A DNA stretch of 58,596 nucleotides from assembly GCA_017456495.1 (NCBI GenBank), contig JAFTJI010000028.1, positions 1 through 58,596 on the forward strand, read 5' to 3'. Each line of letters opens with the position of its first letter. The stretch's first letter is position 1. The notes under the pieces were generated by a model. That model searched no databases. It saw only the letters and a list, made by a program, of their open reading frames with translations, and was not told the DNA's origin. The DNA comes from Lentisphaeria bacterium (GTDB taxonomy: Bacteria; Verrucomicrobiota; Lentisphaeria; Victivallales; UBA1829). Below, piece by piece: positions 2,895 to 58,596 of the stretch. The position numbers and the translations under genes were made by a program.

Positions 2895-3059
2895 GAGGCA
2901 ATTTCTAAAGTCCGGCAAAATTTGGCTGAAAAAAGATTGTTGATGAGTTGGAAATGGTAGTTTGAGCGTGGCTACCCACAAGGTAACCACCGAAAACGCT
3001 CCATTTGCAGATCGCAACAAGAATTTTCTGACATTTTTGAAGACTTTTGAAATTGCCTC
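2895..3059 (+). mobile_element. MITE-like repeat, copy A (165 bp)
   Basis: Terminal inverted repeats GAGGCAATTTCTAAAGTC ... GACTTTTGAAATTGCCTC, flanked by direct CTCT/CTCT. Homologous to 50264-50447 and 58459-58596. The central segment is shorter and different from copies B and C. Confidence 0.8.
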
Positions 3060-35256: not shown

Positions 35257-36645
35257 TTACAGTTCAATATCCGGCAAAGTCCGGAGAGATTTTCTGATAT
35301 CATCCTCTGCAAGAGAAGATTCATTCATCTTTCCATCATTGAACTTGCCATACGCCAGCATATCAAAATATCCTGTTCCGGTCAAGCCGAAAACGATCGT
35401 CTCAGCCCGGTTTTCCCGTTTGCAGCGCAACGCTTCCTGAATTGCTGCATAGATCGCATGACTGCTTTCGGGAGCAGGCAGGATCCCCTCGACCCGGGCG
35501 AATTCTGTTGCCGCCTTAAACACCTCTGCCTGAGGAACAGCAACAGCTTCAAGAAGTTTGTCGTGATACAACTGCGATATGATGGAGTTCATACCGTGGT
35601 AGCGCAGTCCGCCGCTGTGAACAGGCGACGGCATAAATCCGCTGCCCAGCGTGTACATTTTAGCCAATGGACAGATTTTTCCGGTATCGCAGTAATCATA
35701 CACGAACTTTCCACGGGTCAAGCTGGGACATGCTTCCGGTTCAACAGCAATCAAACGGTAATTCTGTTCTCCACGCAGCATTTCACCTGCAAAGGGAGCA
35801 ATCAGACCGCCCAGATTTGAACCGCCCCCGGCACAGCCGATGATCACATCCGGCTTGATACCATACATTCCCAACGCAGTTTTCGTCTCAAGACCAATCA
35901 CACTCTGATGCAGCAGAACCTGATTCAATACCGACCCGAGAACATAACGGAAGCCATCCATCTTCAACGCAGCCTCCACAGCCTCGGAAACAGCACATCC
36001 CAAACTGCCGGATGTTTCCGGATACTCTGCCAGAATCTTTTTTCCGACTTCCGTGGTCATTGACGGCGATGGGATCACGTTCGCACCGTAAGTCCGCATA
36101 ACTTCCCGGCGGAATGGTTTCTGTTCGTAAGAACACTTGACCATGAACACGCGGCATTCCAAACCGTAAAAAGCACAAGCCATTGAGAGAGCAGTTCCCC
36201 ATTGACCAGCCCCGGTTTCCGTGGTCACGCCCTTCAGCCCCTGCTTTTTTGCGTAATATGCCTGTGCAATCGCGGAGTTGAGCTTGTGGCTCCCGGATGT
36301 GTTATTTCCCTCAAATTTATAAAAGATTTTTGCAGGAGTTTCCAGCATTTTTTCCAGAAACTCAGCATGGATCAGCGGAGCAGGACGGTACATCCGGTAA
36401 AAATTACGGACATCTTCCGGGATCGGAATCAAACGGTTCGTTTCGTCCATTTCCTGTGCTGCGGCTTCCGCGCAGAACACCCTTGACAAAGCACTTACTG
36501 TTACCGGCTCCATTGTGACAGGATCCAGAAGAGGTGCAATTTTTCCCGGCATATCAGCCCGCATATTATACCAATGCCGGGGAAGTTCCTTCTCTGCGAG
36601 AATGATCTTGTACGGAATTTCCCTGTTTTCTGTGTTGTTTTTCAT
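35257..36645 (-). CDS. trpB: TrpB-like PLP-dependent enzyme (tryptophan synthase beta chain, type 2)
   Basis: 462 aa, which is TrpB2 length. PLP lysine context GSHKLNSA, TETGAGQWGTALS and GCAGGGSNLGG blocks. GGAG RBS. No trpA or other trp genes in the window. Confidence 0.85.
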   Translation of the reverse strand: MKNNTENREIPYKIILAEKELPRHWYNMRADMPGKIAPLLDPVTMEPVTVSALSRVFCAEAAAQEMDETNRLIPIPEDVRNFYRMYRPAPLIHAEFLEKMLETPAKIFYKFEGNNTSGSHKLNSAIAQAYYAKKQGLKGVTTETGAGQWGTALSMACAFYGLECRVFMVKCSYEQKPFRREVMRTYGANVIPSPSMTTEVGKKILAEYPETSGSLGCAVSEAVEAALKMDGFRYVLGSVLNQVLLHQSVIGLETKTALGMYGIKPDVIIGCAGGGSNLGGLIAPFAGEMLRGEQNYRLIAVEPEACPSLTRGKFVYDYCDTGKICPLAKMYTLGSGFMPSPVHSGGLRYHGMNSIISQLYHDKLLEAVAVPQAEVFKAATEFARVEGILPAPESSHAIYAAIQEALRCKRENRAETIVFGLTGTGYFDMLAYGKFNDGKMNESSLAEDDIRKSLRTLPDIEL

Positions 36646-36660
36646 TTTGTCTCCTTATGT

Positions 36661-36700
36661 GAGGCAATTTCAAAAGTCTCCGGACTTTTGAAATTACCTC
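36661..36700. mobile_element. Mini copy of the MITE family (terminal inverted repeats only)
   Basis: GAGGCAATTTCAAAAGTC-tccg-GACTTTTGAAATTACCTC is the two 18-bp TIRs of the family joined by 4 nt. Flanks are ATGT/GTGT. It lies 15 nt upstream of the trpB2 ATG. Confidence 0.7.
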
Positions 36701-36705
36701 GTGTT

Positions 36706-36741
36706 AAAAAATAAACCCCGCTCGGCTCATTCCGGACGGGG
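36706..36741 (-). terminator. Second intrinsic terminator in the trpB2 leader
   Basis: Minus-strand RNA CCCCG(U)...CGGGG followed by UUUAUUUUUU. Confidence 0.65.
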
Positions 36742-36744
36742 TAA

Positions 36745-36778
36745 TAAAAAAGCGGATCAAACACCATGTTCAATCCGC
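36745..36778 (-). terminator. Attenuator terminator (segments 3:4) of the trp leader
   Basis: Minus-strand RNA GCGGAU-15 nt loop-AUCCGC followed by UUUUUU. The left arm can instead pair with UCCGCCG, which lies just after the leader stop codon. Confidence 0.65.
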
Positions 36779-36829
36779 CGATCTGACTGTTCTATTTATC
36801 TGTACAAAAACGAAGATGCCCCGGCGGAA

Positions 36830-36883
36830 TTACCACCGGCGCCACCAGCAAAAAGATAAAAAGTTATGAATTTCGTTTCTCAT
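36830..36883 (-). CDS. Tryptophan-rich leader peptide (17 aa: MRNEIHNFLSFCWWRRW)
   Basis: ATG AGA AAC GAA ATT CAT AAC TTT TTA TCT TTT TGC TGG TGG CGC CGG TGG TAA read on the minus strand. Three of the last five codons are Trp. It sits upstream of trpB2 and is followed by alternative hairpins. No SD is visible. Confidence 0.6.
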   Translation of the reverse strand: MRNEIHNFLSFCWWRRW

Positions 36884-36892
36884 AATAGTAAA

Positions 36893-36921
36893 AATATAAT
36901 ACTGCTGTTTTGATTTTTCAA
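36893..36921 (-). promoter_or_regulatory. Sigma70-like promoter candidate for the trp leader (TTGAAA-17-TATATT)
   Basis: On the minus strand, TTGAAA (36921-36916), 17-nt spacer, TATATT (36898-36893). The -10 box ends 9 nt before the leader ATG, which implies a leaderless or near-leaderless transcript. Confidence 0.45.
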
Positions 36922-37012
36922 GTCAGAAAAAAAAATTTTTTTTTGAGGTAATTTCAGCTGAAGGCTTTCCATGGTCATCAGTCATGCAAAACAGCATCGT
37001 TTTCTATCCCTT

Positions 37013-37070
37013 TTTTGATACAATAATGCACCTTGAAAATCTTGACTTTCAATTTTACGTCATCTATATT
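37013..37070 (+). promoter_or_regulatory. Conserved upstream motif plus sigma70-like promoter (site 1)
   Basis: TTTTGATACAATAATGCACCT (37013-37033), 8-nt gap, TTGACT (37042-47), 17-nt spacer, TATATT (37065-70). Same architecture as 40591-40648. Confidence 0.6.
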
Positions 37071-50263: not shown

Positions 50264-50447
50264 GAGGCAATTTCAAAAGTCCGGCAAAATTTGTCTGAAA
50301 AAGGATTGTTGATGAGCTGGAAATGGCAGTTTGAGTGTGGCTACCATCCTCCTTCGCTGAAGCTATGGAGGATAAACCGGGAACGCTCCATTTTACAGAT
50401 CGAAACAAGGATTTTCTGACATTTTAGAAGACTTTTGACATTGCCTC
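50264..50447 (+). mobile_element. MITE-like repeat, copy B (184 bp, complete)
   Basis: TIRs GAGGCAATTTCAAAAGTC ... GACTTTTGACATTGCCTC. Perfect 4-bp direct repeats TGAT/TGAT flank it. It contains an internal ATCCTCC...GGAGGAT stem. Confidence 0.85.
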
Positions 50448-58370: not shown

Positions 58371-58458
58371 AATGGTGATAATTTACTATATATTGGTGAT
58401 TTTGTCAAGGCATATTCCGGAAAAATATGCTATATTAGTGCAAAACAACAGATTACAT

Positions 58459-58596
58459 GAGGTAATTTCAAAAGTCCGGCAAAATTTGGCTGAAAAAAGA
58501 TTGTTGATGAGTTGGAAATGGTAGTTTGAGCGTGGCTACCATCCTCCTTCGCTGAAGCTATGGAGGACAAGCCGAAAACGCTCCATTTGCAGATCG
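58459..58596 (+). mobile_element. MITE-like repeat, copy C (3' end cut by the window edge)
   Basis: Starts with GAGGTAATTTCAAAAGTCCGGCAAAATTTGGCTG and is nearly identical to copy B through the ATCCTCC...GGAGGAC core. Confidence 0.8.

Follow-up and report, generated by a model that had tools for sequence, protein, structure and literature searches.

A tryptophan-codon leader peptide and tandem terminators as the probable transcription attenuator of a stand-alone trpB2 gene in Lentisphaerota

Introduction

How is a trpB2 gene controlled when no other trp gene stands beside it? This question is raised by a locus of a Lentisphaeria bacterium in the 58,596-nucleotide (nt) stretch of DNA analysed here (contig JAFTJI010000028.1 of assembly GCA_017456495.1; hereafter the window), where trpB2, at 35257-36645 of the minus strand, encodes a TrpB-like enzyme of 462 amino acids (aa) dependent on pyridoxal phosphate and is taken as the regulated target. 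An earlier note, made from the letters alone, had described in front of it a promoter, a short open reading frame (ORF) rich in Trp codons and a set of mutually exclusive hairpins, and had read them as a ribosome-mediated attenuator upstream of an orphan type-2 trpB. All motifs and coordinates of that note were borne out when the minus strand was read from 37100 to 36500 and the motifs were located by script. The assignment of the target also holds, as the product scores 656.7 bits with NF009057 (cut-off 366) and 577.4 bits with TIGR01415 (cut-off 518.85), but only 142.8 bits with the canonical TrpB model TIGR00263 (cut-off 392.45); the gene is called stand-alone since no trp gene is found among its neighbours. 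The host had been guessed to be a member of Lentisphaerota, a phylum of the Planctomycetes-Verrucomicrobia-Chlamydiae (PVC) superphylum, and this agrees with the closest TrpB2 loci in species-representative genomes, which belong to metagenome-assembled genomes (MAGs) of Lentisphaerae (90% TrpB2 identity), Victivallaceae (82%) and Lentisphaeria (82%). We know of almost no studied gene regulation in this phylum. The comparative data described below support the interpretation given in the note, and the leader is very probably a ribosome-mediated transcription attenuator, with charged tRNA-Trp as its signal and a transcript of trpB2 alone as its target.

The leader ORF and its conservation

The leader (all its coordinates are on the minus strand) begins with a sigma-70-like promoter at 36921-36893, composed of the -35 box TTGAAA (36921-36916), a 17-nt spacer and the -10 box TATATT (36898-36893), and a gap of 9 nt (TTTACTATT) separates it from the ATG at 36883. 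The trpL-like ORF (36883-36830) consists of 17 sense codons, encoding MRNEIHNFLSFCWWRRW, and a TAA stop at 36832-36830, and reads ATG AGA AAC GAA ATT CAT AAC TTT TTA TCT TTT TGC TGG TGG CGC CGG TGG TAA. Its TGG codons (36847-36845, 36844-36842 and 36835-36833) specify peptide positions 13, 14 and 17. On both strands of the 58.6-kb window it is the sole ATG ORF of 8-40 codons with at least three TGG within the last six codons, and the mean number of such ORFs in 100 dinucleotide shuffles was 0.11. As AT-rich intergenic DNA often holds short ORFs and hairpins, it might be supposed that an ORF has come to lie by chance beside ordinary terminators with no regulation involved. However, the expected number of 0.11, together with the conservation of the leader, including compensatory changes, down to 72% TrpB2 identity, leaves this supposition a negligible probability, and we regard it as already refuted by the comparative data.

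These data cover 80 genome loci, 80 metagenome loci and 16 loci found via exact-protein look-ups, in which the 450 nt upstream of each trpB2 were scanned for short ORFs containing Trp codons; among the matches listed, the metagenome relatives, from which the leaders of L081 and L084 come, all have TrpB2 identities to the window of at most 74%. Four of the 16 looked-up loci proved to be of the Bacillota type, with either a T-box or a trpS-trpB2 pair, and added no lineage bearing T2 (the second terminator described below). Conservation of the Trp ORF in orthologous leaders, proposed as a check in the earlier note, was found in about ten other distinct leaders of the Lentisphaerota type. The leader peptides are MRNEIHNFSSFCWWRRW in the relative with 90% TrpB2 identity (L003 = L165), MKNNFYNSFSFGWWRRW (L001 = L164) and MRNDFYNALSFGWWRRW (L002, L166) at 82%, and MRNYLYICCIARPWRVWR at 74% (L168 = L169). 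At 72% stand MKNFSCTSAKNYWCWR (L005) and MKQAIFTNMNWYWWWRTSVTAGMLA, which contains NWYWWWRTS (L006, 2778-2855); at 73% stand MMNNGKQNFTWWRLR, ending in FTWWRLR (L031), and MNKDTFKSFFDWRWCWRGIRLDRAF, containing DWRWCWR (L084, ~350-540); and MEKNTFNNFFDWRRR, ending in DWRRR, belongs to a locus at 74% (L081, ~1230-1440). The N-termini of the peptides drift and their Trp/Arg C-termini are kept, in the forms WWRRW, WCWR, WRVWR, WWWR, WWRLR and WRWCWR; beyond the Trp and Arg codons, no conservation of the peptide was seen in these leaders.

The position of the promoter is conserved as well. In 11 of 11 family sequences a promoter of the form TTGnnA-N16/17-TAnnnT ends 8-10 nt before the ATG, with the -35 box 37-39 nt 5' of it, and L081 and L084 were found to be alike by reading. 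The usual start context is ...ATTATG, and no Shine-Dalgarno (SD) sequence precedes the leader ATG in the family members. This geometry of the -10 box, the short distance and the ATG, taken with the lack of an SD, argues for a leaderless or near-leaderless start of the ORF, and since the same spacing recurs across the family, the argument rests on conserved geometry and not on a single sequence. The earlier note had drawn the same conclusion for the window and had called such initiation unusual for an attenuator; it is unusual, but the Cys attenuators of mycobacteria offer a precedent (bioRxiv 10.1101/834739).

A covariance model built from eight family leaders gives one match in the window (36705-36850, minus strand, 134.6 bits) and recovers three leaders on which it was not trained, L081 (40 bits), L006 (33 bits) and L084 (30 bits). 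It gives no match to E. coli trpL. Weaker matches in or near T-box regions (e.g., L011, L008 and L004) are regarded as non-specific. At the Rfam gathering score there was no match in the window, and none in L006 or L031.

The family is not continuous over the tree of TrpB2 identities. In L161 (2700-3000) and in L162 = L163 (L162, 2440-2545), with 77-78% TrpB2 identity, trpB2 has neither a leader ORF nor a terminator in front of it, only a plain TTGATT-N17-TAAATT promoter. As these loci are nearer to the window than several of those bearing the attenuator, the device seems to have been lost or replaced in some relatives.

The core switch of the leader

The RNA downstream of the Trp codons can be divided into segments with alternative partners. 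Segment 1 (36842-36833) overlaps codons 14-17, including the last Trp codon, and segment 2 (36830-36818), whose first base is the last base of the leader stop codon, can pair with segment 1, with segment 3 (36828-36822 with 36780-36774) or with segment 5 (36830-36819 with 36741-36729). The core of 1:2 is formed by CCGGTGG (36839-36833) with CCGCCGG (36827-36821), that of 2:3 by TCCGCCG with CGGCGGA, and that of 3:4 by GCGGAT (36778-36773) with ATCCGC (36757-36752), followed by T6. The 3:4 hairpin is the stem of the first terminator, T1 (36779-36745), with 13 base pairs (bp) at 36779-36751, a 3-nt loop and U6 at 36750-36745. An independent pattern scan also calls the promoter (10/12 matches) and T1 (13 pairs, loop of 3, T-run). 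When the RNA from 36890 to 36640 is folded with RNAfold, 1:2, T1, a second terminator (T2) and an 18-bp hairpin are obtained at -91.2 kcal/mol, with a z-score of -6.65 against dinucleotide shuffles. The energies of the sub-structures are -19.1 (1:2), -16.5 (2:3), -16.4 (3:4) and -17.4 kcal/mol (T2), so position and folding energy agree with the three pairings and the U-run claimed in the earlier note. The comparison of folds that it recommended thus gives near-equal energies for 2:3 and 3:4, and at equilibrium 2:3 is a weak competitor in some lineages.

The pairings were examined in a MAFFT alignment of eight distinct leaders, with slid partners and shuffles as controls. Of the cells in the stems 1:2, 3:4 and 5:6 (the last being that of T2), 90.3% are paired, compared with 34-49% after sliding of the partners. 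Eight pairs in these three stems are changed on both sides, four of them in T2 and three in 1:2, and this was matched by 0/500 shuffles. For the T1 stem, 95.8% of cells are paired, and the same hairpin was found by scan in L003. For 2:3 the value is 98.2%, compared with 16-55% in the slid controls, and its duplex energy is reached by 0.1-4.9% of segment 2 shuffles. In L084 the antiterminator is very strong, and its 2:3 reaches -25.4 kcal/mol, a value attained by 0.2% of shuffles. When cognate partners were compared with permuted non-cognate ones, the cognate mean was reached in 12/720 permutations for 1:2, 6/720 for 3:4 and 114/720 for 2:3. The covariation that the earlier note had suggested to look for is therefore present in 1:2, 3:4 and 5:6 and absent from 2:3. 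The 1:2, 2:3 and 3:4 pairings, as predicted from the aligned sequences, are the family-wide core of the device.

Several observations bear on the strength of this reading. The changes in 2:3 are one-sided only (C to U, giving G-U) and do not covary; we explain this by the almost invariant partner, GGCGGA(U), and its near-invariance, in turn, by a presumed chain of constraints in which the Trp and Arg codons fix segment 1, which fixes segment 2, then segment 3 and then segment 4. The barrier for refolding from 2:3 to T1 is low, 2.8-6.1 kcal/mol. In L001 and L005, freeing of segment 2 barely alters T1 at equilibrium. In the window, the two U-proximal pairs of T1 fall from a probability of ~0.97 to ~0.2 under the same treatment, and the values reached in L168 and L002 are ~0.05 and ~0.5, respectively. 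For the E. coli trp attenuator, taken as a benchmark with the same method, the barrier from 2:3 to 3:4 is 5.8 kcal/mol, and 3:4 is more stable than 2:3. As equilibrium folding does not let 2:3 beat 3:4 in every lineage, the control of T1 is treated as kinetic. In the leader of L081, three Arg codons follow the only Trp codon. The position of the stalled ribosome is of importance too. A ribosome covers ~12-15 nt 3' of its A/P site, and with this footprint assumed, a stall at W13/W14 would leave 36830-36818 free, with the UAA abutting segment 2, whereas a stall at W17 would cover part of segment 2.

The second terminator and the 2:5 pairing

A second hairpin with CCCCG and CGGGG arms and a U-run had been reported for the window, and it is confirmed there and conserved in relatives. 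This terminator, T2 (36742-36706), consists of a stem at 36742-36715, interrupted by a single internal mismatch, and the sequence UUUAUUUUUU reaching to 36706; its core is CCCCG (36741-36737) with CGGGG (36720-36716), followed by TTTATTTTTT to 36706. Tandem hairpins, each with a U-run, are found in the window, L003, L001, L002, L005 and L168, and the stem of T2 begins only ~8 nt past the U-run of T1. In the cognate test, 2/720 permutations reach the cognate mean for 5:6. In L081 and L084, which are probably derived from a rumen metagenome, the second hairpin is weak, abuts the SD and has no real U-run.

The distance between T2 and the SD of trpB2 is ~20 nt in L003, L001 and L002, and no further promoter-like site is present there. 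As this gap leaves no room for another promoter, trpB2 expression must pass T2. This bears on the proposal that the leader is a free-standing gene for a small RNA (sRNA) or small protein acting in trans, comparable to rnTrpL and peTrpL of Sinorhizobium, with trpB2 expressed by other means. Terminated leader transcripts of ~135-180 nt would indeed be produced, and roles in trans of attenuator RNA and peptide have reported precedent (PMC6614838, PMC7298713). However, trpB2 has to be read through the leader in these three relatives, and the peptide is not conserved outside the Trp and Arg codons. We consider this proposal improbable as a substitute for attenuation, and a role in trans would add to the role in cis, not replace it.

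What, then, is the function of a terminator placed directly behind T1? In the window, segment 2 can pair not only with segments 1 and 3 but also with the 5' arm of T2, 36830-36825 with 36734-36729 and 36823-36819 with 36741-36737. This 2:5 pairing, like the 18-bp hairpin at 36700-36661, is absent from the earlier note. It was judged by duplex tests free of an alignment register, as MAFFT misaligns L005, L168 and L031 in T2. The 2:5 duplex has an energy of -17.3 to -23.6 kcal/mol in seven of seven sequences bearing T2, and 0-0.6% of segment 2 shuffles reach it, a significance as good as that of the terminator stems. Cognate pairs also beat non-cognate ones, with 3/720 permutations reaching the cognate mean. 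The paired sequences themselves vary by lineage: UUCCG.CGGGG with CCCCG..CGGAA in the window, CCGGAG..GGGA with UCCC...CUCCGG in L005, a 16-bp duplex in L168 and UUCCGUCG.GGC with GCC.CGAUGGAA in L031. If segment 1 is masked and the transcript ends before segment 6, then in each of the six lineages 2:5 (9-16 bp) is part of the minimum free energy (MFE) structure and encloses 3:4; with segment 1 unmasked, 1:2 forms and 2:5 never appears. To refold from 2:5 to 5:6, a barrier estimated at 8.5-15 kcal/mol has to be crossed, and 2:5 remains the MFE structure in L031. The last locus is instructive in another respect, as its first hairpin lacks a U-run, T2 is its only terminator and 2:5 (11/12 bp) is the only evident competitor.

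It is conceivable, though still somewhat doubtful, that 2:5 is the antiterminator of T2. The doubt has several sources. In the fixed register of the alignment, 2:5 is paired in 79% of cells (29-56% when slid), which is not above shuffles (337/500). The seven sequences used to test this pairing are also those from which the idea arose. In L081 and L084 the pairing fails to reach significance, and as both lack a real T2, they are uninformative. In addition, segment 2 cannot fully pair with segments 3 and 5 together, and a hand-over between them has to be assumed. A relay, in which segment 4 would pair with segment 5 and so block T2, was considered and rejected, as 4:5 duplexes are no better than shuffles (10-80%).

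The main alternative is that only the classical single switch (1:2/2:3/3:4) operates, T2 being a constitutive back-up or damping terminator with fixed read-through and 2:5 a by-product of the similarity of GC-rich CCGG-type segments. It is favoured by the conservation of 2:3 across the family, also in L081 and L084, which lack 2:5, by the strength of 2:3 in L084 and by the failure of 2:5 to beat shuffles in the fixed-register count. On the other hand, a constitutive terminator 8 nt past T1 would lower induced and basal expression alike, and yet four compensatory pairs preserve the stem of T2; 2:5 is as significant as the real stems in seven of seven genomes, with covariation of cognate partners; and L031 keeps T2 as its lone terminator with 2:5 opposing it. 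The single switch appears to us rather unlikely. The distribution of the features leads to the conclusion that T2 with 2:5 would be an addition made in the sub-clade holding the window.

The proposed course of attenuation

From the observed sequence features, their conservation and the pairing potentials, we infer the following course of events, in which the start site, the ribosome footprints, the kinetics, the hand-over from segment 3 to segment 5 and the response to Trp are the inferred steps. Judging by the distance of 8-10 nt between the -10 box and the ATG and the lack of an SD, transcription would start a few nt before the leader ATG, and ribosomes would translate the 17-codon ORF from a near-leaderless message before RNA polymerase has left the leader. 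When Trp is plentiful, the ribosome would reach the UAA abutting segment 2 and cover this segment, and after its release segment 1 would pair with segment 2. T1 (3:4 and U6) could then form and terminate transcription, and T2 (5:6 and its U-run) would catch the polymerases that escape. When charged tRNA-Trp is scarce, a ribosome stalled with UGG13 or UGG14 in the A site would mask segment 1 and free segment 2 (36830-36818), which would then hold the base of T1 in the 2:3 pairing. It is further proposed that T1 eventually folds behind the polymerase, and that segment 2, released in this way, captures segment 5 before segment 6 is made, so that T2 does not form. Such a hand-over would leave 2:5 as a trap with a high barrier around 3:4. 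With both terminators disabled, trpB2 would be transcribed, and its product presumably makes Trp from indole. This scheme may be called a "double-lock, one-key" device, as segment 2, freed by a stall on a leaderless Trp ORF, would disarm two tandem terminators in turn. In its complete form it is put forward tentatively, as a possibility that we do not yet favour.

A repeat remnant between the second terminator and trpB2

T2 is separated from the SD of trpB2 (AAGGAG, 36656-36651) by the perfect hairpin of 18 bp at 36700-36661. This hairpin is absent from L003, L001 and L002. In contigs of the same species (L171 and L172, 99% TrpB2 identity) its arms are ~125-130 nt apart and belong to a full element of ~165 nt. 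Further copies of this repeat are found in the window at 2895-3059 (96% identity), 50264-50447 and 58454-58596, the last one running off the window end, so that the 58.6 kb hold at least four copies, including the remnant at 36661-36700. Outside the window, it occurs at 2-175 of L171, 166-340 of L172 and 299-490 of L003. The terminal inverted repeats are 18 nt long (GAGGTAATTTCAAAAGTC ... GACTTTTGAAATTGCCTC), and the repeat, which resembles a miniature inverted-repeat transposable element (MITE), has no match in Rfam. A 30-mer query from the palindrome matched only itself, and the inverted-repeat scan did not list the palindrome. The palindrome was also considered as an operator or an RNA element, and this was rejected, as it represents the two ends of the repeat. 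As judged from these sequences, a MITE-like repeat entered the DNA between T2 and the SD, and in this strain only its two ends are left. It lies outside the switch; its remnant will be part of the read-through mRNA.

The palindrome could be taken in favour of control by a protein or ligand, that is, a repressor binding at it, a TRAP-like protein, a T-box or a riboswitch, with the ORF being incidental. The use of T-boxes or possible operators for trpB2 in other phyla, described below, would be in line with such control. Against this, the palindrome consists of the ends of a repeat that is missing from L003, L001, L002 and others; a search of 36600-37050 against Rfam at E values up to 10 gave no match to Trp_leader, T-box or any other family; and the ORF, its Trp codons and the promoter distance are conserved in about ten lineages. 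Control of this kind is, in our opinion, very improbable.

Control of orthologous trpB2 genes in other phyla

The orthologues outside the family are preceded by different regulatory elements. In Bacillota (70-73% TrpB2 identity), a T-box lies directly 5' of trpB2 in L009 (2575-2819), L012 (2700-2940) and L167 (1-217). In L004, L008 and L011 the order is T-box (~1582-1830), a gene of 347 aa and trpB2; the intervening gene, at 1901-2944 in L008, is trpS (TIGR00233, 232.6 bits, cut-off 176.75), and the same pair of synthetase gene and trpB2 is present in L174 and L175 (1-959). Six of six Bacillota T-boxes carry GAA-UGG-N at the presumed specifier position. From the general architecture of T-boxes and this sequence, we take the motif to be a Trp specifier.

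Trp-codon leaders are also present in Bacteroidales (L036, L038, L040, L058, L062, L142, L145-L147, L150, L152-L154, L158 and L160). Their ORFs lie ~160-190 nt upstream of trpB2 and form a different family, marked by three Trp codons in a row (e.g., MFMMNNNSWWWHSYYSDSRRRL, MGFTCNNTWWWRLLQLNES and MIFSGNTSWWWRSYFLLKS), and a single GC-rich terminator follows. Apparently, this is a separate leader-peptide attenuator for trpB2. In Kiritimatiellia (L014 and L024), no leader ORF or terminator was found in the last ~90 nt before trpB2, and two palindromes similar to TTACTAT..ATAGTAA (AATTACTATCAATAGTAAC and TTTCTATTTGTAGTAAC) flank a TTGACT promoter, which suggests repressor control. One more arrangement was observed in a GC-rich MAG labelled Bacillota (L047 and L149), where a leader ORF preceded by an SD, MTDRIMRNACVAFDWRWLSRYLPCPNRN, lies ~190 nt upstream of trpB2, its Trp-codon segment pairs just past the stop codon and one terminator follows; judging by this layout, it is another independent leader-peptide design. 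The repeated placing of trpB2 under control by Trp supply, by unrelated means, supports both the reading of the Lentisphaerota leader as an attenuator and a role of the enzyme in making Trp.

Comparison with known attenuators

The closest functional model is E. coli trpL (RF00513). Both have a short ORF with adjacent Trp codons followed by Arg, the 1:2/2:3/3:4 pairings, a stop codon just before segment 2 and an intrinsic terminator, and E. coli TrpL shares UGGUGGCGC with the window leader. The likeness is stronger still for the leader of L006, which has in common with TrpL the motifs MK(Q)AIF and WWRTS and an identical stretch of 15 nt (TGGTGGCGCACTTCC). However, the window gives no match to RF00513, its SD-less ORF starts ~9 nt past the -10 box, a second terminator is complementary to segment 2, the target is a stand-alone trpB2 and not trpEDCBA, and the phylum is Lentisphaerota.

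The trp attenuators of actinobacteria (Corynebacterium, Streptomyces) were predicted with double or triple UGG codons, GC-rich terminators and triply complementary segments; they differ in phylum and sequence, precede biosynthetic operons and have a single terminator (Seliverstov et al. 2005, PMC1262725). The "trpB2A" of C. diphtheriae denotes a second trpB copy beside trpA and is not a stand-alone type-2 gene. The leaderless poly-Cys short ORFs of mycobacteria are described as Cys-responsive attenuators (bioRxiv 10.1101/834739; PMC4633059). They resemble the present case in that a leaderless ORF at the 5' end senses an amino acid by runs of codons and controls downstream genes, and differ in the amino acid, cysteine, and in the phylum. 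The Trp T-boxes of Bacillota act on the same gene (70-73% identical), respond to the charging of tRNA-Trp and work by read-through of a terminator, but the tRNA is bound directly by the RNA, with no ribosome or leader peptide involved, and the window has no T-box.

Devices arranged in series are known from Salmonella mgtCBR, where tandem attenuators include two leader ORFs, each governing its own structure (PMC3641672); in the present leader, two terminators seem to be governed by a single ORF and a single antiterminator strand. Within the PVC superphylum, the only proposal of Trp-dependent attenuation at a Trp-salvage (trpBA) locus concerns Chlamydia trachomatis, where intergenic TrpL/YtgR attenuation at trpRBA is disputed and has been attributed to a WWW motif in YtgCR and to the YtgR repressor, not to a classical leader-peptide switch (PMC7755916). 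The trpB1-type gene there is paired with trpA. A literature search gave no paper joining "Lentisphaer*" and "transcription attenuation"; its coverage was incomplete, which makes it weak evidence of novelty.

Other features of the locus

The neighbours of trpB2 are on the opposite strand and encode rhamnosidase-like, GH42-like, DUF4838 and DUF1559/N-methyl proteins. Directly 5' of the -35 box, at 36927-36944 (minus strand), lies an A9T9 tract, AAAAAAAAATTTTTTTTT, similar to an UP element (the upstream part of a promoter) and not conserved in L003. Two further candidates were examined and discarded. Sequestration of the SD, that is, translational attenuation, was ruled out, as the SD of trpB2 is unpaired in every predicted fold. 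A frame of 41 codons (36767-36643, minus strand), which begins at an ATG within the loop of T1 and whose TGA stop shares bases with the trpB2 ATG, is not a conserved gene; it is seen only in the window and L003, where the frames differ downstream of the U-run, and is absent elsewhere.

Conclusion

The mechanism proposed for this leader is of the textbook trpL type, and what is new is the phylum, the stand-alone trpB2 as a target and the conserved near-leaderless ORF; the second terminator sharing the antiterminator strand is probably new as well. Classical leader-peptide attenuation would thus be extended to Lentisphaerota. The family is compact (~150 nt) and well defined, and it could enter RNA family databases and be used for the annotation of MAGs. 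At least three unrelated devices responding to tRNA-Trp would act on one orthologue, namely the leader peptides of Lentisphaerota and those of Bacteroidales, and the Trp T-boxes of Bacillota, often with trpS. The regulation proposed here fits a TrpB2 that supplies tryptophan and, judging by general knowledge of TrpB2 enzymes, would do so most simply from indole in the gut. The near-leaderless start and the tandem terminators with one antiterminator strand are testable variants of the textbook switch. If the disarming of both terminators by one strand is true, it would represent a new architecture of leader-peptide attenuation and would mark the stand-alone TrpB2 as an enzyme of gut Lentisphaerota that is induced by Trp starvation and presumably salvages indole.

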